DNA from: Candidatus Wolframiiraptor gerlachensis
Lineage (GTDB): Archaea > Thermoproteota > Nitrososphaeria_A > Caldarchaeales > Wolframiiraptoraceae
Direction: 5' to 3'
Length of the DNA stretch: 64,000 nt
Assembly (NCBI GenBank): GCA_021323375.2
Contig: JAJPCT020000017.1
Span: 1-64,000 of the forward strand
A program made the translations under genes and the position numbers. This document shows positions 9,088 through 24,471 of this stretch, piece by piece (position 1 is the first letter of the stretch; each line of letters starts with the position of its first letter). Under the pieces are notes generated by a model. That model did not search any database. It had not been told where the DNA came from and was given only the letters and a program-made list of their open reading frames with translations.

Positions 9088-9208
9088 CCGAGCGGAAGAC
9101 AACCACGCAAGACTAAAAACCATTTCCTCGACCAGCCTCCATCGCTAGACTTTTAAGCACCCTTAACCCTCATATTCTTGAGCCCCCACAAGGGGGATAA
9201 GAATAAAA

Positions 9209-9270
9209 GCCCGATGATGAGGATGACCTGCACGGATGCTTTGATGAGGAGCATGCACCTCTCTGAGGGG
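9209..9270 (+). ncRNA. dual-guide C/D box sRNA targeting 16S helix 34
   Basis: C ATGATGA 9214-20, D' CGGA 9233-36, C' TTGATGA 9241-47, D CTGA 9263-66, terminal ccc/ggg stem; guides complement GCAGGUCA and GAGGUGCAUG. Confidence 0.85.
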
Positions 9271-9291
9271 TCTTCTGGGGGGCGTCTCAGG

Positions 9292-9561
9292 GTGAGGGTT
9301 AGGATTTTTGGCCCGCTTAAGGAGATCTCGGGGGGAGTAGATCTCTTCGAGTTTGAGGCTTATGAGGGTGAGAGCCTTATGGATGTCTTGAGGAGGCTTC
9401 CCGACCCTCTCCGGGGGAGGGTTCTCGAGGATGGGATGCTCTCGCCCGAGCTACTGGTCCTAGTTGATGGCATGGAGATGTCATGTCTTGGCAGGCCGGA
9501 TGAGATAAGGCTGAGGGGGGTTAAGGAGATTCACTTGGTGCCCGTTATTCATGGGGGCTGA
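9292..9561 (+). CDS. MoaD/SAMP/Urm1-like ubiquitin-fold protein
   Basis: Beta-grasp pattern ending PVIHGG; start moved to GTG 9292 because the longer ORF overlaps the sRNA. Confidence 0.85.
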   Translation: MRVRIFGPLKEISGGVDLFEFEAYEGESLMDVLRRLPDPLRGRVLEDGMLSPELLVLVDGMEMSCLGRPDEIRLRGVKEIHLVPVIHGG

Positions 9562-12463: not shown

Positions 12464-12826
12464 CTACTCTGCCTTTCCTTCTTCCTGCAGATATCTTTTA
12501 ACGAGCTCGGCTATCGCCTGGAGCTTCTCCTCGGAGAATAGGAGGATTGGCGCGAGCCTCTTATAGCCGCTCAGGATCGCCCTAAGCTCCTCCACATGAA
12601 TCGGACAGATATCCACTATCTGGACAGCCTCCTCCCTCGTGAGCTCGAACTTCTCCATAAGCTCGTTTATCAGCTTCTCAGCCCTATCAGCCGAGAGCTT
12701 GGAGTATTTCCTCACATAGTTCAAGACCCTCTGCTGGAGCGTTGTGAGCTCCGCCCCACCACTACTAAGTATCCTCTCGACTTCCGGGAGTGAGAGCGGG
12801 GTACGGGAAATAATCCTCCTCACCAT
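12464..12826 (-). CDS. rpoF: RNA polymerase subunit Rpo4
   Basis: AVQIVDICP..ELRAIL; operon context. Confidence 0.9.
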   Translation of the reverse strand: MVRRIISRTPLSLPEVERILSSGGAELTTLQQRVLNYVRKYSKLSADRAEKLINELMEKFELTREEAVQIVDICPIHVEELRAILSGYKRLAPILLFSEEKLQAIAELVKRYLQEEGKAE

Positions 12827-12832
12827 AGGCGA

Positions 12833-13126
12833 TCACGCGCTCCATCTAATCAAGTGATCCGGGAGAATTGTAAGCGTCCTGAGACTCTCACCGATCCTAA
12901 CCCTAACAACATATGCTCTTCCCCTCCTGCCCAGGATCTCCCCTATCCTCCCGTGATAGCGCCTATGTGGCGCGCCCTTATGCACCGATGGATTTAGCTT
13001 GATAACAACCTTCTCGCCGGGCTGGAAGTCCTGTAGATAGATCTCGGGGTTAGGCCCCTGCCTACTTCCCACAGGCTTCGTCAGCAAGTCCCTTGACTTG
13101 TAACGGAATCCCTTTGACTTCGGCAT
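12833..13126 (-). CDS. rpl21e: 50S ribosomal protein L21e
   Basis: MPKSKGFR, PHRRYHGRIG, PDHL. Confidence 0.96.
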   Translation of the reverse strand: MPKSKGFRYKSRDLLTKPVGSRQGPNPEIYLQDFQPGEKVVIKLNPSVHKGAPHRRYHGRIGEILGRRGRAYVVRVRIGESLRTLTILPDHLIRWSA

Positions 13127-13178
13127 TTTTCCGGCTTTTTAGTCAAATTTCCCAACTTAAAACCTTTATCAAGCCCCA

Positions 13179-13214
13179 CCATGGACTTACAAGTCCATGG
13201 ATGGTAACATCCAT
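13179..13214. repeat. perfect 10-bp inverted repeat plus an overlapping 7-bp hairpin
   Basis: ccatggactt-ac-aagtccatgg (13179-13200) and atggatg-gtaa-catccat (13197-13214), just upstream of the rpl21e promoter. Confidence 0.8.
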
Positions 13215-13218
13215 ACTC

Positions 13219-13273
13219 CCTGCTGGCCTTTATTGCTACGAAGACTTGCCAGCCAGCCCCACCTCCATTACCC
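13219..13273. repeat. 55-nt element, copy 1 (downstream of rpn11)
   Basis: 46/55 ungapped identity to 14153-14207 by manual alignment. Confidence 0.85.
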
Positions 13274-13320
13274 TCACTTTTCCTCAATATTATATAACCA
13301 CAAAACCCTAAACCTAAGTC

Positions 13321-13992
13321 TTAAGGTTGCATATGGAAGCCAACCCTATCCTTAATCTTCTTGAAGAAGTTGCTTAGCGAGCCCGTGAGCTTGTCGACTG
13401 GAAAGCCGAGATCCGCTTCAAGATCCTCGAATTGCCCCTGATCGGCCTCGCTACTGGATTTGCCTCCGCGGATATACTTCAGCTCCATGGTCTCAATCCC
13501 CCTTAGCGTGCTCTCCAATAGCTTCTGCCTATGGATACCTATCGAGACTGGAATGGCCACCACCTCACCCTTCTGATTTATCCTGAAGACCTTGAAGCTG
13601 AGGTCCTGAAGCCTCCTCGTCCTCGCATATTTTAGGGGATCTATCACAAGCGCCACGGCCTTTGGGAAGAGCCTCTGGTAAAGCTTCTGGGTCTCAATGT
13701 CTATTGCCGAGAGGAATACATCGAAACCCGGGTGAGAGTGATACCATCCGACGATGTATAGGCCGGGCCTATTCCTGAGAACCCACTCCGCCGCCGCGGC
13801 GATCGTCTCCTCCTCCAGATAGACGAAGCCGGGCGTCGACTTCTGCTCGCCCGTTATGGTATCCCAGATCTCAAGCACATCACCCCTCTTCAAGTATTTC
13901 CCCACGAGAAGCCCTGCAACCTCCCTATTCAGGTCATCAAGAGCGTGTTTTATCATCTTACCAAGCGCCAGCGGATAAACCCTAACCTTCAT
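13321..13992 (-). CDS. rpn11: Rpn11-like JAMM/MPN+ deubiquitinase
   Basis: EVAGLLVG, GWYHSHPGFDVFLSAID, ALVIDP; divergent from ubiquitin. Confidence 0.92.
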   Translation of the reverse strand: MKVRVYPLALGKMIKHALDDLNREVAGLLVGKYLKRGDVLEIWDTITGEQKSTPGFVYLEEETIAAAAEWVLRNRPGLYIVGWYHSHPGFDVFLSAIDIETQKLYQRLFPKAVALVIDPLKYARTRRLQDLSFKVFRINQKGEVVAIPVSIGIHRQKLLESTLRGIETMELKYIRGGKSSSEADQGQFEDLEADLGFPVDKLTGSLSNFFKKIKDRVGFHMQP

Positions 13993-14152
13993 TAATGTGC
14001 CCTCCTTATAGGAGAGCTTGTAGAGAGCCTGTTTTTATTCGTTCCTAATCCTCGGAGTATGGAAGACCAAGAATAAGGGAAGGAGAAGTATTTTTTAGTA
14101 TCCTTCTTTTTTATCTCAGCTGTCTCAAAGTAATACTCTTTTTCTTTGCATA

Positions 14153-14207
14153 CCTGCCAGCCTTGATGGCTACGAGGACTCGCCGGCCAGCCCCACTCCC
14201 ATTACCC
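14153..14207. repeat. 55-nt element, copy 2 (upstream of rpn11)
   Basis: Direct repeat of 13219-13273. Confidence 0.85.
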
Positions 14208-14368
14208 CTAATTTTTATTTATCTCATTTGTCGAAAACTAGCATATGTTTCATGCAGAGAAAAATGCCATCCAAGGGGATTTTAACATTCTTAGGATGAG
14301 AGCGGGCTTTCCGGCACCTGCCATTCCTACCGGAAAACTCTCGAAGAATATCTTTCTGGAGGCCTCTT

Positions 14369-14394
14369 GCACAACATATTTATATATCGTGTGC
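14369..14394. promoter_or_regulatory. TATA box of the Ub operon, possibly bidirectional, flanked by gcaca/tgtgc
   Basis: TTTATATA 14379-86; GGAGG 14413-17 before ATG 14430. Confidence 0.6.
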
Positions 14395-14429
14395 TCGCCC
14401 TATTCTCAGACAGGAGGTTTGAAGGAATT

Positions 14430-14666
14430 ATGAAGATTAGGATCGTCCCCGCTGTGGGAGGGGGTAATCCCATAGAATTAGAGGTCTCACCTTCCACGAC
14501 TATAGGAGCTATTAGGGCTAAGGTCTGCGCCATGAAGAAGCTTCCACCAGATACGACGAGGCTCACATACAGGGGCAGGGCGCTCAAGGATACGGAAACC
14601 CTCGAATCGATAGGAGTCCAGGATGGGGACAAGCTCATATTGATAACTAGGACTGTGGGCGGATAA
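14430..14666 (+). CDS. eukaryote-like ubiquitin (78 aa, ends at GG)
   Basis: MKIRIVPAVGGG..RLTYRGRALKDTETLESIGVQDGDKLILITRTVGG; followed by E2, E1, RING. Confidence 0.95.
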   Translation: MKIRIVPAVGGGNPIELEVSPSTTIGAIRAKVCAMKKLPPDTTRLTYRGRALKDTETLESIGVQDGDKLILITRTVGG

Positions 14667-14744
14667 TCTCCGCCTCTCCGGAGAATAGCGAGCTAAGGGC
14701 TGCTCAAAGTTAATTACCTGCCTCCCAAGAATAGGATTAATAGC

Positions 14745-15224
14745 TTGAAAACGCAGCTCCCCGAGGCTCTGTGGAGCAGGAGACTGGCGCTAGAGTATAA
14801 GCTGATGAGGGAGAATGAGCCTACATTCGACATAGTGGATAATCAGCTGACGCATTACCGTGGAGTGATAATTGGTGAGGGCCTGTATGAGGGTGGATTC
14901 TTCAAGGTGGAGATAATTGTCCCGCGCACATTCCCGTATACTCCTCCCGATGTTATCTGGTGGACGAGGATATGGCATCCAAACTTCACGGACGAGGTTC
15001 CCGCGAGGATCTGCGAGTCGATATTCAAGAATGATTGGAGCCCCTCGCTCCACCTCTTCTCAGTCGTCGAGGCTTTGAGGAATCTGCTCAATAATCCGAA
15101 TCCCGATGATCCTCTAAACACGTTCGCCGCTGCTGAGATGAAGTATAGGCCGGATATCTTCGAGGCTAGAGTTAGGGCGTATATTGAGCTATACGCTAGG
15201 CCGGAGTATGCCTTCCAGGAGTAG
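14745..15224 (+). CDS. ubiquitin-conjugating enzyme E2
   Basis: YEGGFFKV, FPYTPP, IWHPN, catalytic Cys in RICES, WSPS, PNPDDPLN. Confidence 0.95.
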   Translation: MKTQLPEALWSRRLALEYKLMRENEPTFDIVDNQLTHYRGVIIGEGLYEGGFFKVEIIVPRTFPYTPPDVIWWTRIWHPNFTDEVPARICESIFKNDWSPSLHLFSVVEALRNLLNNPNPDDPLNTFAAAEMKYRPDIFEARVRAYIELYARPEYAFQE

Positions 15225-15282
15225 CTGAGGATCTTGGAGAAATAATACTCATAAGCAACATGGGCTGCCTTCACGTGGTAGG

Positions 15283-16476
15283 ATGACCGAGAAGCAAGGC
15301 GGCCTCGAGCGATATGATCGGCAGTTAAGGATCGTGGGATGGGATCAGGAGAATCTTAGCAGGGCCAGGGTCGTCGTGGTGGGAGTTGGCGCCACGGGAT
15401 GCGAGGTCTCAAAAAACCTCGCGTTAATGGGCATTGGAAAGCTCATCCTAGTAGATAATGACGTGATCGAGCTATCAAATCTAAGCAGGCAGATGCTCTT
15501 CCTAGATGAGGATATAGGTAAGCCCAAGGCCATCGTTGCAGCTAATAGGCTGAGGAGGATGAACCCGCTTATAGAGGTTGAGCCATACTTCGAGGACGTT
15601 AGAAGTCTCGACGAATCAATCTTCGAGGGGGCTGACATCATAGTATCATGCCTTGATAACTGGCCTGTTAGGAGGTGGCTCAACTCGCTCGCGGTGGAGC
15701 TGGATAAGCCGCTCGTGGATGTCGCGATGGAAGGATTCTACGCTAATCTTCAAGTCGTGATCCCGAGGAAGACCGCGTGCTTGGAATGTCATGGGGAGGA
15801 TCTGATACCAAAGGAGACGCAGCTCGCCGAATGCACGCTGAGGAGGAGAAGGCCTGAGGACCTCGTTCAAGACCTGAAGCAGGCGGGAATAAAGATAAGT
15901 CAGAAGATAGCAGAGAAGCTATTCGAACATGACATCAAGACAATTTATGATCTGAAGTATGCTCAGGAGGGCGTGTTAATGAAGCTGGATAAGAAGACAT
16001 TGGAGGTTGTTAGGAGGATTAGGGAGAGGCTGAAGCCGAAGCTTCCAGCACTTCAAAGCGTCGCCGCCATGATCTCGGGGCTAGCCTCAACAGAGATTGT
16101 GAAAATACTTCATGGAGATAGGCTCGGGGAGCCGATCAAGGGCCTTCTAGTATATGATGGTCTCGCGGGACAGTTCACGATCGTGGAGCTTGAGAGGAGC
16201 CCCGAATGCTTTGTCTGCGGAGATCTAGTCGAGGAAGGGCTGACGATCACGGTCAAGCCGGACGAGACCATTCTAGACCTGAAGAGGAGGATAGCAGAGA
16301 CATACAGCATCCCGGATCCCGAGATACTTTACCGGGAATGGAGGCTCCAGGACGATAAGAGGATCTTGGAGCTGGGAGTTAAGGAGGGCGATACACTATA
16401 TATCACCACTAGCAGGAGGTTCATGCCCCTTCAGCTAAGGGTTCAATTCCACAAGGAGGAGGTGATGGCTCCATGA
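15283..16476 (+). CDS. ubiquitin-activating enzyme E1 with C-terminal ubiquitin-fold domain
   Basis: RYDRQ, GVGATG, SNLSRQ, CLDN, CLEC/CFVC, AECTL, then VKPDETILDLK..LGVKEGDTL. Confidence 0.93.
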   Translation: MTEKQGGLERYDRQLRIVGWDQENLSRARVVVVGVGATGCEVSKNLALMGIGKLILVDNDVIELSNLSRQMLFLDEDIGKPKAIVAANRLRRMNPLIEVEPYFEDVRSLDESIFEGADIIVSCLDNWPVRRWLNSLAVELDKPLVDVAMEGFYANLQVVIPRKTACLECHGEDLIPKETQLAECTLRRRRPEDLVQDLKQAGIKISQKIAEKLFEHDIKTIYDLKYAQEGVLMKLDKKTLEVVRRIRERLKPKLPALQSVAAMISGLASTEIVKILHGDRLGEPIKGLLVYDGLAGQFTIVELERSPECFVCGDLVEEGLTITVKPDETILDLKRRIAETYSIPDPEILYREWRLQDDKRILELGVKEGDTLYITTSRRFMPLQLRVQFHKEEVMAP

Positions 16477-16709
16477 GGAGGATAACGATATTAGAGGAGG
16501 AGAAAGCGGGCGAATGGGATCTCATGTTCGAGGAAGAGGGGAAGAAACTGGATGTATGCCCGGTCTGCTCCGCGGAGATACATGAGGGCGTCCCCGTATT
16601 CGAGTGCCCCTTCTGTGGAAACAAGATGCATGCTAGATGTGTCCAGCCATGGATAAATGAGAGGGGGACATGCCCAATCTGCAAAAGGCCTTTATCACAG
16701 AAAGCATAA
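16473..16709 (+). CDS. small RING finger E3 ligase
   Basis: C-x2-C-x12-C-x2-C-x4-H-x2-C..W..CPIC; start overlaps the E1 stop (ATGA). Confidence 0.9.
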   Translation: MRRITILEEEKAGEWDLMFEEEGKKLDVCPVCSAEIHEGVPVFECPFCGNKMHARCVQPWINERGTCPICKRPLSQKA

Positions 16710-16730
16710 CATTATTAGAGGTGCTCTGGC

Positions 16731-17081
16731 TTGAGCAAGGCTGAGAATGGCGGCATAGTCCTAAAGCCGAAATACTTGGAGACGCCCAAGGGCAAGATCC
16801 CCACATATGATTTCGTGATGGGGTTGGCGAAGGCGATCAACATCCTCGACGAAGCTGTGGCGGAGCTTGAGGAGAAGATAAGGGGCATGACTCCGGCGAG
16901 CACGGCGGAGCTAAGCGACCTGAAGGCCAGGCTTGAAAGCGTCGAGGAGAGGTTGAAGAGCTTGGAGAAAAGGCTAGAGGTAGAGCTAGAGGATCTTAAC
17001 GACAAGCTGATGACCTTGACCGATGTGGTCCATGAGCTTGCTGAGAGGGTTCAGAGGCTTGAGGAGAGCATTAGGGGCTGA
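16731..17081 (+). CDS. small coiled-coil protein at the end of the Ub operon
   Basis: GAGGTG RBS-like site, 21 nt after the RING gene; heptad repeats. Confidence 0.8.
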   Translation: MSKAENGGIVLKPKYLETPKGKIPTYDFVMGLAKAINILDEAVAELEEKIRGMTPASTAELSDLKARLESVEERLKSLEKRLEVELEDLNDKLMTLTDVVHELAERVQRLEESIRG

Positions 17082-17910
17082 CGACCGCGCGCCTCATCTC
17101 CGCGATCAGCTTCTCGAGGCTCGCCCGCTTATTCTCGAGATCCTTTACCTCAGCCTCGAGCCTCTTCTTCCGCTCCTCGAGCATGTTCAGCTCGCTTCTC
17201 AGCTGGAGGACCTTCCTCTCAAGCTCCTCAGCCGCCTCCTCCTTCTCTCTAAGCTTGGATAGCCCCTCCCTGAGCTCGGCCTCCTTCTTGAGGAGGCGCT
17301 CCATCCTTATCTCCCTTATCTTGAAGTCCCTGAGAAAGCCCTTGAACATGTTCTCAAGCCTGTTTCCCAGCTCCTCGAGCCCCTTGAGATATCTGTTCTC
17401 AAGTTCCGAGATCTTGCGTTCGAGGTCAAGCTTCTTTTCCTCAAGAGCCCTTAGCTCGGCTTCCCTCATCGCCAGCTCCCTCTCCTTCGCGTCGAGATCA
17501 TTTCCCCATTTCCTCAGCTCCTGCCTGATCACAGCGAGCTCGCTCTTCTCCCTTAATAACGCCTCTATCTCCCTCTTTATCGCCTCGCGCTCCTTGCTCA
17601 AGGCCTCGATAATATCCTTCAGGCCCTCTTGGATGGAGAGAAGCGTGTTTTCATAGAACCTGACTTGATCAAGCTCCTCCGAGACCTTCTCGGCCTTCTC
17701 GAGAAAGATCGCGAGCTTTGATCTTATGGTCTCCGGCTGTGAGGCTAATGTCCCGAGAAGAGCTTGAATCTCCATGAGCCTAGACTCAAGCCTCTTCAAC
17801 ACCTCATTAAGGGGCGCTACACTCGCGGAGATTCTCTGCTCGAATTTGTTTAACCTTTCCTCAATCTTATCCTCAAGCTCCTCAACCTTCTTCCCGCCAA
17901 ATAGCGACAT
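17071..17910 (-). CDS. long coiled-coil protein
   Basis: Continuous E/K/L heptads; likely start ATG 17910 (MSLFGGKK). Confidence 0.8.
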   Translation of the reverse strand: MSLFGGKKVEELEDKIEERLNKFEQRISASVAPLNEVLKRLESRLMEIQALLGTLASQPETIRSKLAIFLEKAEKVSEELDQVRFYENTLLSIQEGLKDIIEALSKEREAIKREIEALLREKSELAVIRQELRKWGNDLDAKERELAMREAELRALEEKKLDLERKISELENRYLKGLEELGNRLENMFKGFLRDFKIREIRMERLLKKEAELREGLSKLREKEEAAEELERKVLQLRSELNMLEERKKRLEAEVKDLENKRASLEKLIAEMRRAVVSP

Positions 17911-18061
17911 TTCTGGACAAGAACCTTTCAAAGTGTTATAAAAAGTTGATTCACCCTTTGGCCATAGTCTCCACATCCCCGTGTTACGAGCTGTTTATAA
18001 GGCGGGAGAACCGAGGCACTAGGGGGCTTGTGCGAGGTTGCTCACGACTAGAGAGGAGGTA

Positions 18062-18760
18062 ATGTCTAGGCTGTATAAGATCGGGTCAATCGCAGCGGCT
18101 ATGGGGGCGATTCACATCCTTACACTCCTCCTAAGCTGGTATGTCCAAGTAATAGATGGCACTGAGAAGAGTGTTCAGGGCCTCGTAAGCCCCTACGCGA
18201 CGATGATGTCTCTTGTCGGCGGGATCCTAGCCGGCATCGGCGTAGTCGTCATCCACTTCATCAAGGGGCTTAGGGCGATGAAGAATATTCTGGGGGTCTC
18301 GATAATCGCGGGAGGCCTCCTCGCCGCGATCTCGCCAATCTACTCCTACTGGTTCTGGCTCCTAGAGCTATCAAGCTACTCTAGGTTCGATCTCGGGTTC
18401 TTCGCGGCCACCTTCACCGGAGTTATCCTCCTAGCCGTAGGAGCCCTAGCGCTCCTCACGCCCGTAAAAGAGGAGGTCATCCCATCGGCATTCACGGCAA
18501 TGCCGCCAGCCGGGCCGGAGCTCATGGAGGTTGGGGGTGCAGCTCCAAGCCCAAGCAGGCCTGCGACCACTAGGATAGTCCCGGCGCCAGATGTTGCAGA
18601 GGCGATATGCAGCATATGCTTTGACTTCATACCGGAGGGTGAGGCCATGAGATGTAGCAACTGTGATGCAATATTTCATAAGGGATGCATAGACTCTTGG
18701 GTAAGTATTAATGGGATATGCCCCAGCTGTAAGGCCATTGTTACAGATAGGGAGGGCTAA
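18062..18760 (+). CDS. 4-TM membrane protein with C-terminal RING (putative membrane E3 ligase)
   Basis: Four hydrophobic segments, Pro-rich linker, CSIC-x11-CSNC-x4-H-x2-C..W..CPSC. Confidence 0.85.
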   Translation: MSRLYKIGSIAAAMGAIHILTLLLSWYVQVIDGTEKSVQGLVSPYATMMSLVGGILAGIGVVVIHFIKGLRAMKNILGVSIIAGGLLAAISPIYSYWFWLLELSSYSRFDLGFFAATFTGVILLAVGALALLTPVKEEVIPSAFTAMPPAGPELMEVGGAAPSPSRPATTRIVPAPDVAEAICSICFDFIPEGEAMRCSNCDAIFHKGCIDSWVSINGICPSCKAIVTDREG

Positions 18761-18790
18761 GAGCTATTAAAAGACTAATATAACGGTAGA

Positions 18791-20302
18791 TTGCTCAGAA
18801 CCGAGACCACGGCCATGCAGCTTAGGCAGGATAAGGGCGTGAGCAGGAAGTTCGAGGAGCTTATCAAGCTCGCTCTCGAGAGGGGATTCTTTGCATCGGC
18901 CTCCGAGATCTATAGCGATGCTCCTGCGGGCTTCTGGGATTATGGGCCGCTCGGCGCAGCTATGAAGAGGAAGTTCATCGAGCTTTGGAGGAGGGAGCTG
19001 GTGAGGAGAGATGGTATGCTTGAAATAGATGGTGCCCAGATACTTTCCAAGAGCGTATTCAAGGCCTCAGGCCATCTAGATAGCTTCGTTGACCCGATAG
19101 CGCGATGCAGTCAATGCGGCGCGATCTATCGCGTTGATAAGCTGATAGAGGAGAAGACCGGGCTACATGTCCCCGAGAGGTTGAACCTTGATGAGATGAG
19201 GAGGATTGTGGAGGAGAATGGTGTGAGGTGCACGCGTTGTGGGGGAGAGCTGACCGGCTACTCCCACTTCAACATGATGTTCAGGGTCGGCGTCGGCGTC
19301 GCTGAGACCGATGCGTACCTCCGGCCGGAGACCTGTCAAAACATCTTCGTGGACTTTCTCAGGCTCTATAAGACGATGAGGAGGAAGCTTCCATTCGCGA
19401 TAGCGCAGTATGGGAAGAGCTTTAGAAATGAGATCTCCCCGAGGCAGGGTCTTCTCAGGATGAGGGAGTTCTATCAAGCCGAGATAGAGGTCTTCTTCAA
19501 CCCAAATAAGGCTAATGACTTTCCGAAGGCCGATGCGGTGATGGGATATGAGCTGAGGCTCCAGCAGGTTGGTGAGAGCGAGCCGTCCGAGATCACTTGC
19601 AGGGAGGCCTTGAGTCGGGGGCTCATTTCGAGCAAGCTCGTCGCCTATTATCTCGCCCTTATCCAGCAATTTTACGAGAAGACTGGGATCCCGAGGGAGA
19701 GGATTAGGCTGAGGCAGCTTGGCGAGGATGAGAAGGCCTTCTACGCCGTAGAGGCATGGGATCTCGAAGTGGAGACCAGCCTCGGGTGGATAGAGCTCGT
19801 CGCCTGTAATAATAGGGGAGGCCACGATCTCGGAGGCCATCAGAGGATGAGCGGACAGGAGATGGAGGTGCTCGATGATAGCCAGAAGATCCTACCACAT
19901 GTATTCGAGCTCTCAATGGGTGTTGACAGAAGCCTATACTGCATCCTTGAGAACTTCCTAGACTTAGAGGATGGTAAGACCGTGCTTAGACTGCCCCCAT
20001 ACCTCGCGCCAATAGATGCTGCAATCCTGCCGCTGGTCTCGAAGGAGCCGCTTACAAGCAGGGCCATGGAGATATATAATGAGCTGAAAAAAGACTTTGA
20101 CGTGGAGTATGATGATTCGGGGAGCATCGGGAGGAGGTATATGAGGTATGATGAGGTGGGCGTCCCAATATGCATCACCGTAGATTACCAGACCATGGAG
20201 GATGATACGGTCACGGTTAGGTTCAGGGATTCCGCGCACCAGATCAGAGTTGATTTAAGCGACTTGCACTGCCTCCTGAGGGAGTGGTTGGCATATCCTT
20301 AG
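18791..20302 (+). CDS. glyS: glycine--tRNA ligase
   Basis: DYGPLG, YLRPETCQ, FRNEISPRQGLLRMREF, SGSIGRRY; start may be GTG 18839. Confidence 0.96.
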   Translation: MLRTETTAMQLRQDKGVSRKFEELIKLALERGFFASASEIYSDAPAGFWDYGPLGAAMKRKFIELWRRELVRRDGMLEIDGAQILSKSVFKASGHLDSFVDPIARCSQCGAIYRVDKLIEEKTGLHVPERLNLDEMRRIVEENGVRCTRCGGELTGYSHFNMMFRVGVGVAETDAYLRPETCQNIFVDFLRLYKTMRRKLPFAIAQYGKSFRNEISPRQGLLRMREFYQAEIEVFFNPNKANDFPKADAVMGYELRLQQVGESEPSEITCREALSRGLISSKLVAYYLALIQQFYEKTGIPRERIRLRQLGEDEKAFYAVEAWDLEVETSLGWIELVACNNRGGHDLGGHQRMSGQEMEVLDDSQKILPHVFELSMGVDRSLYCILENFLDLEDGKTVLRLPPYLAPIDAAILPLVSKEPLTSRAMEIYNELKKDFDVEYDDSGSIGRRYMRYDEVGVPICITVDYQTMEDDTVTVRFRDSAHQIRVDLSDLHCLLREWLAYP

Positions 20303-23578: not shown

Positions 23579-23675
23579 CTTTCAGAATGAATAAACTTAG
23601 CCTTTCAGAATGAATCAACTATACGGGTTATACGGGCTATGAATAAACTTAAAAGCAATCAACTACACGGGTTAT
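23579..23675. repeat. mosaic of short direct repeats in a divergent promoter
   Basis: ctttcagaatgaatMaact at 23579 and 23602; atgaataaactta at 23587 and 23639; aatcaactaYacgggttat at 23613 and 23657. Confidence 0.8.
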
Positions 23676-24471
23676 GAGGATGCCTAAGCGCATTATAATT
23701 AAGGACTCGGATCTGGAGAATGCCGAGCCTGTCATAGAGCCTGTTGAGGAGGCTGAGAAGCCCGCTGAACCCTCCATCGAGGCTGAAATTACTGAGAGAA
23801 AGGAGGATATAATGCTTGAGAAGGCTATCGCGGATGCCGACGCGGCATATGAGCTCGTCCTCGGCAAGATAGATGAGATAAGGATTAGGGAGGAGGTTAC
23901 CCAGAAAAAGTTCTTGGATGATCCAGGGATGAGCCTCGCGATCCTGAAGAAGCTCATCCAGCGCTGGGACTCCATGAGAGAGGAACTGATACGCTATATT
24001 GATGACGCGATCGAGAGATATCGTAAACTGGCCGAGCTATTGGAGGAGAGGTTCTCGAGCATCGAGGAGGAACTTTACTTCAATCAAGTTGAGCTGGATA
24101 CGATAATGCAGCTTGAGTCTCAGGGAAAGCCTATCTCCGTCTCGAAGAAGGAGGAGCTTGAGAACCTTATCCCGAGGCTGAGGGAGGGGCTAGCCCAGCT
24201 CGATAAGAAGATCAAGGAGGTTAATGGAAGAATCGAAGAGCTTAAGAGGATGCGGGAGAACGTGTATGAGGCGACCTCATATAAGAGGCTCGCGGACGAT
24301 ATATTCACGCAGATAGTCAATAGCCTTCAGACGAAGTATGAGAGCCCGGAGGAGGCGGCGGTGAAGATCAGGTCTCAGGTCGAGATCATCGCCCAGCGCG
24401 AGGGGATCCCGAGGGAGTACGCGACTCTCTATCTCTGGAAGAGGTTAAAGGGCCAGCTTAGGACCGGCTGA
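23674..24471 (+). CDS. acidic coiled-coil protein of unknown function
   Basis: Short N-terminal strand, Pro/Glu linker, long heptad region. Confidence 0.75.
   Translation: MRMPKRIIIKDSDLENAEPVIEPVEEAEKPAEPSIEAEITERKEDIMLEKAIADADAAYELVLGKIDEIRIREEVTQKKFLDDPGMSLAILKKLIQRWDSMREELIRYIDDAIERYRKLAELLEERFSSIEEELYFNQVELDTIMQLESQGKPISVSKKEELENLIPRLREGLAQLDKKIKEVNGRIEELKRMRENVYEATSYKRLADDIFTQIVNSLQTKYESPEEAAVKIRSQVEIIAQREGIPREYATLYLWKRLKGQLRTG

Follow-up and report, generated by a model that had tools for sequence, protein, structure and literature searches.

The closest described counterpart of the locus reported here is the ubiquitin-like system of Caldiarchaeum subterraneum, which was found by Nunoura (2011, PMC3082918) and reconstituted by Hennell James (2017, PMC5654768). 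Stepwise transfer from E1 through E2 to E3 and cleavage by the deubiquitinase Rpn11 have been shown in vitro, for the C. subterraneum proteins only (PMC5654768; Fuchs 2018, PMC6043591), and the archaeal Rpn11 has been crystallised. These papers describe five genes, those for Rpn11, ubiquitin (Ub), E2, E1 and a small RING finger protein (srfp). The Introduction of Fuchs 2018 places the operon 'adjacent to a second E3 protein', and the paper closes on the question of physiological targets and substrate choice (PMC6043591). Here we describe the corresponding locus of Candidatus Wolframiiraptor gerlachensis, at positions 13,321 to 18,760 of a 64,000-nucleotide stretch (positions 1 to 64,000 of contig JAJPCT020000017.1), which as a whole is called the window below. 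In it the five genes are followed by two coiled-coil genes, CC1 and CC2, and by the gene for a membrane RING protein, mRING, which corresponds to the second E3 of that Introduction. We read the locus, with a probability of roughly 0.5, as an orthologue of the C. subterraneum system joined to an E3 block (srfp, CC1, CC2 and mRING) that is ancestral to the class, with a working model of the roles within it. What is new is the comparative description of the extra genes; the core system is known, and relatives of the published organism likewise carry the extras.

From open reading frame (ORF) calls and Pfam, the stretch holds eight genes in the order Rpn11(-), Ub-E2-E1-srfp-CC1(+), CC2(-) and mRING(+) (Table 1). 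An earlier model reading of the letters, referred to here as the original prediction, had assigned the first five to a Caldiarchaeum-type cluster, and this was borne out by the Pfam matches and by solved structures: the best solved relative of the window Rpn11 is CsRpn11 (PDB 6FJU, E 3.3e-68) and the best specific relative of the window Ub is CsUb (PDB 6FJ7, E 8.5e-41). It had also continued the cluster with a co-oriented coiled coil, a convergent overlapping coiled coil and a membrane RING, and these three genes were confirmed. The E2 is the sole E2 match in its own genome. The order was further supported by independent metagenome assemblies, in which a contig of each of runs X1 and X3 extends from Ub into CC2 and another contig of run X3 runs from the 5' end of CC2 via mRING into the gene for glycyl-tRNA synthetase (GlyRS); the full stretch is spanned by no single contig of these assemblies.

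Table 1. Features of the ubiquitin locus and its surroundings (positions are those of the window)
Feature	Position	Strand	Remarks
Rpn11-like JAMM deubiquitinase	13321..13992	-	PF01398 E 1.6e-18; divergent from operon
261-bp insertion, Rpn11/Ub intergenic region	13989..14249	.	carries an interspersed repeat of about 60 bp
Ub, 78 aa	14430..14666	+	PF00240 E 1.6e-14; real start 14430
E2, UBC fold	14745..15224	+	PF00179 E 7.7e-29; HPN...Cys (WHPNF...ICESI in translation)
E1, ThiF fold, with a Ubl (ubiquitin-like) domain at the C-terminus	15283..16476	+	PF00899 E 7.5e-64; PF00240 at residues 320-376
srfp, 78 residues, soluble E3	16473..16709	+	zf-RING_2 PF13639 E 4.7e-9
CC1, 116 aa	16731..17081	+	next cistron after srfp; only sub-threshold coiled-coil matches
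CC2, 279 aa	17071..17910	-	convergent with CC1; 11-bp 3' overlap (17071-17081)
Divergent control region, 127 bp	17911..18037	.	TATA-like boxes 17936-17945 (CC2) and 17994-18000 (mRING)
mRING, 240 aa	18038..18760	+	four transmembrane segments, Pro-rich linker, C-terminal RING; zf-RING_2 PF13639 E 8.3e-9
GlyRS	18791..20302	+	Pfam; constant downstream neighbour of mRING
CC3, 265 aa, helical bundle	23674..24471	+	5 kb away in the window genome

The five core genes agree with those of C. subterraneum in order, orientation and RING spacing (PMC3082918). The srfp RING is spaced C-x2-C-x11-C-x2-C-x4-H-x2-C-x10-C-x2-C, which matches the spacing printed in that paper. The srfp start overlaps the E1 stop by 4 bp, and in an alignment of 24 srfp sequences (A3) residues G13 and W15 and all eight zinc ligands are invariant, the former two forming a constant N-terminal G-x-W motif ahead of the RING. 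We surveyed 76 genomes of the class, from four families and 15 genera, and mapped 28 of them in detail; the synteny check that the original prediction had proposed found the continuation of the cluster conserved in the four families. It includes the genomes of genus g8, whose Ub has a nine-residue tail like the published pro-ubiquitin and which carry CC1, CC2 and mRING downstream. The locus differs from the published system in that the papers describe five genes, in the 261-bp insertion between Rpn11 and Ub, and in its Ub, which ends in ...TVGG directly before the stop, without a C-terminal propeptide. This Gly-Gly-stop end is common to the window genome, G016 and G035; the Ub of other relatives carries C-terminal tails of 2 to 15 residues (loci L013-L023). 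Since Ub ends at Gly-Gly-stop in some genomes, processing of a precursor by Rpn11 is not needed in every lineage.

CC1 and CC2 are not described in the passages searched in the three papers, where the term 'coiled' has no match in Nunoura or Fuchs and a single match in Hennell James, which refers to Rad50. A wider literature search likewise turned up nothing on the extras beyond the words 'a second E3 protein'. Supplementary Fig. 1 of PMC5654768, outside these passages, is said to show a wider operon set and may show the neighbours.

The membrane RING protein

The hydrophobic segments of mRING lie at about residues 14-36, 52-75, 83-105 and 118-142 (19-residue windows with a mean hydropathy of at least 1.9), and these spans are kept in an alignment of the family (A1). 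Its N-terminus carries three K/R residues, loop 2 carries three K/R and no D/E, and loops 1 and 3 are net acidic. Loop charges and hydropathy together predict an N-in/C-in topology with the RING in the cytoplasm. A topology is not given in the main text of Fuchs 2018, from which the word 'membrane' is absent (PMC6043591).

The RING of mRING has a spacing identical to that of srfp, and its zinc ligands (C191, C194, C206, C209, H214, C217, C228 and C231) are invariant in the 11 sequences aligned. In the same sequences I193 and P229 are invariant, W221 is present in at least 90%, and in 7 the last Cys is followed by a Lys. We take Ile193, Trp221 and Pro229 to be the positions that contact the E2 in eukaryotic RING-E2 structures. 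The window's own genome encodes exactly two RING proteins, srfp and mRING, and one E2. In a tree of 35 RING domains, all of which fit the C4HC3 spacing, the srfp domains (24 rows) and the mRING domains (11 rows) are parted by a single branch supported at 96/86; the alignment has 49 columns and the finer branching is unreliable. Judged by its RING domain mRING is a paralogue of srfp and, because one supported branch separates the two, the paralogues predate the four families.

A full-length mRING was recovered from 72 of the 76 class genomes and the E2 from 75. The genomes without an mRING match are G002, G004 and G012, where srfp alone was found, and G067 (59% complete), in which neither RING was detected. 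In G002 (95% complete) contig C46 ends 745 bp from CC2, and this interval contains no long ORF, through either loss or an assembly break. In a 301-genome sample of the phylum, full-length mRING occurred in 42 of 43 genomes of the class and in 0 of 258 outside it. A search of 5.8 billion proteins with the transmembrane (TM) part returned 24 relatives, all of 230-249 aa and all with a RING, and an ESM Atlas search with the same part gave a best score of 0.78, below the useful range.

These sequence features suggest that mRING probably has E3 activity and would be a second, membrane-anchored E3. A membrane zinc-finger protein of another role, tied to the GlyRS transcription unit and serving as no ligase for this Ub and E2, could account for the way mRING stays with GlyRS in all 25 mapped loci, also where it has left the Ub/E3 block, and for the RING-bearing proteins found in 12 of the 258 genomes outside the class, none of which has an E2 match. 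One of these, in G119, joins a RING to a bPH_2 domain, so that RING proteins do exist in the phylum without a recognisable E2. Such a role is rather improbable for mRING, however, which shares its zinc-ligand spacing with the proven E3 srfp and is its closest kin, keeps the residues equated with E2 contacts, and belongs to a full-length family confined to the class in which nearly every genome has this E2. Fuchs 2018 likewise reads the protein as a second E3 (PMC6043591), and for the same reason the membrane RING is not wholly new.

A membrane ligase with a C-terminal RING has a parallel in the Hrd1-type ligases of endoplasmic-reticulum-associated degradation (ERAD), which have several TM helices and a cytoplasmic C-terminal RING and work with a soluble E2. 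mRING is like them in joining TM segments to a C-terminal RING; it differs in having only four such segments, these archaea have no endoplasmic reticulum, and with no sequence or fold relation found between the two, the comparison is an analogy only.

The coiled-coil genes and the order of the block across the class

In the window CC1 starts 22 nt past srfp and is preceded by GAGGTG at a distance of 8 nt. Outside genera g1, g2, g4 and g5, the CC1 start in most loci overlaps the srfp stop or lies no more than 6 nt from it; in families f2-f4 and genus g3 most loci have the two overlapping or abutting. By these usual signs, spacing or overlap and the GAGGTG, CC1 is the next operon cistron after srfp. 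Its residues T18, P19 and G21 are invariant in 30 sequences and make up an N-terminal T-P-x-G motif that is followed by a helix. For CC2, the original prediction had started the frame at 17976 (301 aa), which is too long: relatives align from residue 23 of the longer frame, and the ATG at 17910 has a conserved TATA-like box 26-35 nt upstream of it. With this start the protein has 279 aa. Both TATA-like boxes of the divergent control region are kept in 10 of 10 aligned sequences from four genera. An AlphaFold2 model predicts CC2 as a near-continuous helix (residues 7-57 and 59-276; pLDDT 86, pTM 0.32), and a low pTM is expected for a rod. The extras are not chance ORFs, since full-length relatives down to 25-35% identity are found in four families.

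Searches for a known identity of these proteins returned little. CC2 matched no Pfam, NCBIfam or PDB family above the cut-off, a PDB search with the CC2 profile returned generic coiled coils only, and NCBIfam and PADLOC gave nothing above the cut-off for CC1, CC2, mRING or the third coiled-coil gene, CC3. The three coiled-coil genes are without detectable kinship, with profile-profile probabilities of 8% for CC1 against CC2 and 17% for CC3 against CC2. At E<=1e-10, the CC2 profile found 17 representatives among 1.84 billion proteins. The N-terminal M-S-L-F-G-G-K-K of CC2 presumably resembles that of the ESCRT-III/PspA superfamily, but membership in it was not supported: for 10 members neither Snf7 nor PspA was among the listed Pfam matches at E<=1, and the modelled helix of residues 59-276 shows no hairpin. 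Some CC2 relatives (P0010, P0014 and cluster members) appear in public databases as 'Chromosome partition protein Smc' or 'chromosome segregation ATPase'. Such titles are artefacts of the coiled coil, as the proteins are all-helical, of about 280 residues and without ABC-type heads; SMC was rejected for CC2 itself, which is 279 aa of helix without ATPase heads and reached 24-32 bits with SMC/Rad50 models against cut-offs of 567-1000. A match to TRIM45 (E about 1e-3) was likewise set aside as coiled-coil noise.

CC2 was found in 41 of 41 genomes and CC1 in 40 of them with a single-protein query, the 41st being recovered by profile. Among the mapped genomes the convergent CC1-CC2 pair occurs in 28 of 28 and the contiguous order srfp-CC1-CC2 in 26 of 28. 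The 3' ends of CC1 and CC2 overlap by 4-16 bp in the loci compared and nearly abut in one (L018). By a hand count from match coordinates, srfp and mRING lie on the same contig within 2.2 kb in 53 of the 76 genomes; in 13 they are on different contigs, mostly at the ends of these, and in 2 they are far apart (553 kb in G034 and 6.7 kb in G063); a further 4 have mRING and no srfp match, 3 have srfp only and 1 has neither.

The position of the breaks is informative. In family f2 (19 genomes), none of the 17 genomes with both matches has the E2 next to srfp, the split falling between E1 and srfp, and the two blocks lie 84 kb apart in G025, 166 kb in G034 and 311 kb in G065. Rpn11 and CC3 stay with Ub-E2-E1 there (L032); CC1, CC2, mRING and GlyRS stay with srfp. 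Because the cut lies between E1 and srfp, the extras travel with the E3 and not with the cascade. The junctions CC1|CC2 and mRING|GlyRS were never seen broken.

Several observations weigh against a functional tie between the extras and the ubiquitin system. CC2 and mRING are split in genus g9, in which none of seven genomes has mRING near srfp, and in G063, and CC1-CC2 are on a different contig from srfp in G058 and G061. GlyRS adjoins mRING in 25 of 25 mapped loci (inverted in one), including those where mRING has left CC2, so that mRING may be co-transcribed with it, and a PhoU-like gene and the tRNA-splicing endonuclease gene (EndA) usually follow GlyRS. Adjacency alone is weak evidence, because these housekeeping neighbours are equally constant in the class. 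Co-occurrence with Ub across the class is uninformative, as the E2 is nearly universal there and genomes that share descent cannot count as independent. We found no family, fold or motif that links CC1 or CC2 to ubiquitin biology. Finally, the CC2 profile, searched across the phylum, matched 42 class genomes and a single outsider, G079 (E 1e-24; 94% complete), in which no E2 or RING was detected; Ub and E1 were not searched for in it. G079 is alone in its family, without close relatives in the collection. Its CC2-like gene encodes 470 aa with two CC2-type repeats and an N-terminus, MGFLPKK, that resembles the family's; its CC1-like gene (154 residues, E 3.8e-6 at Z=2000) aligns in the N-terminal segment, without the T-P-x-G. 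The two genes are convergent and overlap by 26 bp (L059, G079:C10, 5190-7921). As G079 has the pair and no E2 or RING was found in it, the pair is older than the ubiquitin link, or independent of it. In the same locus a gene for an AAA ATPase (PF00004 and AAA_lid_3, 279 aa) is divergent from the CC1-like gene, and PmbA/TldD genes lie upstream.

The original prediction had expected that the extras would not be unlinked elsewhere or occur in genomes lacking Ub. The breaks in f2, g9, G063, G058 and G061 and the G079 pair run counter to part of this expectation.

In the main rival reading, which is possible though we would not call it probable, CC1 and CC2 would form a structural pair of their own (cytoskeletal, say, or serving division or the envelope) that stands beside the Ub operon only by descent in a genome that rearranges slowly, leaving mRING as the only extra in the Ub system. 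The G079 pair adjoins an AAA ATPase in a genome with no E2 or RING found, GlyRS, the PhoU-like gene and EndA are neighbours just as constant, srfp is apart from CC1/CC2 in two genomes, and neither coiled-coil protein has a ubiquitin-related domain. What this explanation leaves unaccounted for is that CC1 is translationally coupled to srfp in most lineages, that the f2 break fell between E1 and srfp and not between srfp and CC1, and that the T-P-x-G motif, invariant in the 30 class sequences, is missing in the G079 homologue, which fits a change of role after capture. We infer a tie between srfp and CC1/CC2 from the way the operon is built, from where it broke in f2 and from the motif that CC1 gained; from these sequence data, chances are about even that srfp contacts the pair. 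Co-folding of srfp (A3, 24 rows) with CC1 (A4, 30 rows) gave scores of 0.11 and 0.14 against a mark of 0.32 in a run without controls, and is uninformative either way.

A coiled coil that serves a RING has precedents. In ligases of the TRIM and Bre1 types, a RING is joined to a long, dimerising coiled coil, which sets the position of the RING or of the substrate. The locus is alike in pairing a RING with coiled coils; here they are separate genes, and any contact between their products is putative.

The pair could also stand at the receiving end of the cascade, as its main physiological substrates, with ubiquitylation controlling the assembly or turnover of the rod. The reconstituted cascade put Ub on coiled-coil lysines of the surrogate substrate Rad50 in vitro (PMC5654768), Lys makes up 10.8% of CC2 and 9.5% of CC1, and the genes of an enzyme and its target are sometimes linked. 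The Rad50 lysines and the Lys content of CC2 are no more than suggestive: Rad50 was an arbitrary surrogate, coiled coils in general are rich in Lys, and the evidence given here fits an adaptor equally well. We regard CC1 and CC2 as improbable main substrates.

Other ubiquitin and RING sets, and neighbouring features

Outside the class, E2 matches above the cut-off were found in 5 of the 258 sampled genomes, none of which has a RING match. The RING protein of G119 mentioned above (G119:C26, L049, 5099-6025) has 308 aa, with the bPH_2 domain followed by a C-terminal RING; no E2 was found in that genome. Prokaryotic RING fingers are reportedly the subject of a 2011 study by Burroughs, Iyer and Aravind, which may mention the extras. 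In genus g9, G034 has a second, different Ub-like set (G034:C2, L058, 4881-8531) made up of a Prok-RING_1 protein, an unknown protein of 280 aa, a fused Ubl-E2 protein of 272 aa and a protease of the JAB type; Ubl-E2 frames like this one occur in G058 and G061 as well.

A further cluster in G108, from another lineage of the phylum (G108:C16, L054, 6655-10757), encodes a JAB protein (525 aa), Ub, E2, a Ubl fused to E1 and double zinc ribbon/B-box proteins, with no RING. It is like the present locus in gathering Ub, E2, E1 and JAMM in a compact cluster, but has the zinc-ribbon/B-box and lacks a srfp-type RING, CC1/CC2 and mRING. The Asgard clusters, as presented in a preprint (Makarova 2024, PMC11188069), are likewise compact sets of Ub, E2, E1 and JAMM; they have ESCRT neighbours and no srfp-type RING, CC1/CC2 or mRING.

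CC3 lies directly beside Rpn11 in genera g3, g6, g7, g8, g10 and g12, which is probably the older arrangement, and CC3 may be a partner of this deubiquitinase. Its AlphaFold2 model is a helical bundle behind an acidic disordered stretch (pLDDT 86.6, pTM 0.74). The family is class-specific, with a conserved N-terminal MPKKIVIK and C-terminal GIPREYA..LWK (L014, L018, L019, L022, L032 and L034). A Foldseek comparison of the model with the PDB gave no match at E<=0.001, and a PDB search with the CC3 profile returned generic coiled coils only. The CdvA profile PF18822 found nothing at CC3 or CC2 in the window's own genome at E<=10. Aligned to the S. islandicus CdvA filament (9s9g_A) with VIA-align, CC3 reached Z 11.0 over 130 residues (root-mean-square deviation 3.5), a score that designed helical bundles tie and that is below the value of about 13 advised for helical proteins.

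The insertion between Rpn11 and Ub is not part of the ubiquitin system. The congeneric G002 lacks it, and in run X4 one contig joins across the insertion site without it. Contig depth is about 5x at the insertion and contigs break there in all four runs. The window's own genome holds 23 further partial matches to it, most of them to one stretch of about 60 bp. The core of this element lies at about 14153-14220 and has about 20 further copies in the genome at 80-91% identity; positions 13219-13281 were noted together with it. An Rfam scan of 12800-19000 gave 0 matches, and a tRNA scan of 13000-14500 found none.

GlyRS is probably not part of the ubiquitin system. In genus g7 the enzyme (L018 11051-12709; L042 8359-10050) matches that of the window in two pieces separated by a gap of about 230 bp, one covering residues 22-361 (L018) or 11-361 (L042) at 35-36% identity and the other residues 365-492 at 46%; the gap may be an insertion or a divergent domain. 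Elsewhere in the window, an ORF of 127 aa (9178-9561, +) ends in ...VIHGG and has a SAMP1/Urm1-like similarity (E 1.2e-5; 25.7 bits, sub-threshold against a cut-off of 60), and may encode a prokaryote-type Ubl in the same window.

A working model and what it would mean

In the working model, whose functional links are all inferences from gene order, the single E2 would be served by two paralogous RING E3s, srfp being soluble and mRING being fixed in the cytoplasmic membrane, so that part of ubiquitylation would take place at the membrane. The older coiled-coil module of CC1 and CC2 would have come to lie behind srfp, and the two proteins would form a long helical rod, with an extended length of about 30 nm, acting as a scaffold or adaptor for srfp or as its main target. 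The original prediction had drawn a membrane-associated role from the extra genes and cast them as substrates, adaptors or a scaffold; a membrane-associated branch is reasonable, given a membrane RING predicted to face the cytoplasm, and the substrate, adaptor and scaffold roles of the coiled coils are not told apart.

A stronger form of the model would have srfp, CC1, CC2 and mRING make up one membrane-tethered multi-subunit RING ligase, in which the captured pair is a rod of about 30 nm that links the RINGs or presents membrane or division proteins, CC3 is a partner on the removal side, and the whole is a prokaryotic forerunner of the coiled-coil RING ligases and of membrane-bound ubiquitylation of the kind seen in ERAD or endosomal sorting. 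We think this unlikely.

The archaeal cascade has been reconstituted, and on its targets and its choice of substrates the E3 block supplies concrete candidates: a second ligase that is expected in the membrane, and two proteins that stay with the soluble ligase where the operon has come apart. If the link to CC1 and CC2 fails, there is no reason to change the published five-gene picture, and the extras are neighbours like any others. If it is true, soluble and membrane RINGs that divide the work between them, together with coiled-coil partners, would predate the eukaryotes, and mRING, CC1 and CC2, as conserved neighbours, may show where and on what the ubiquitin system of these archaea acts.

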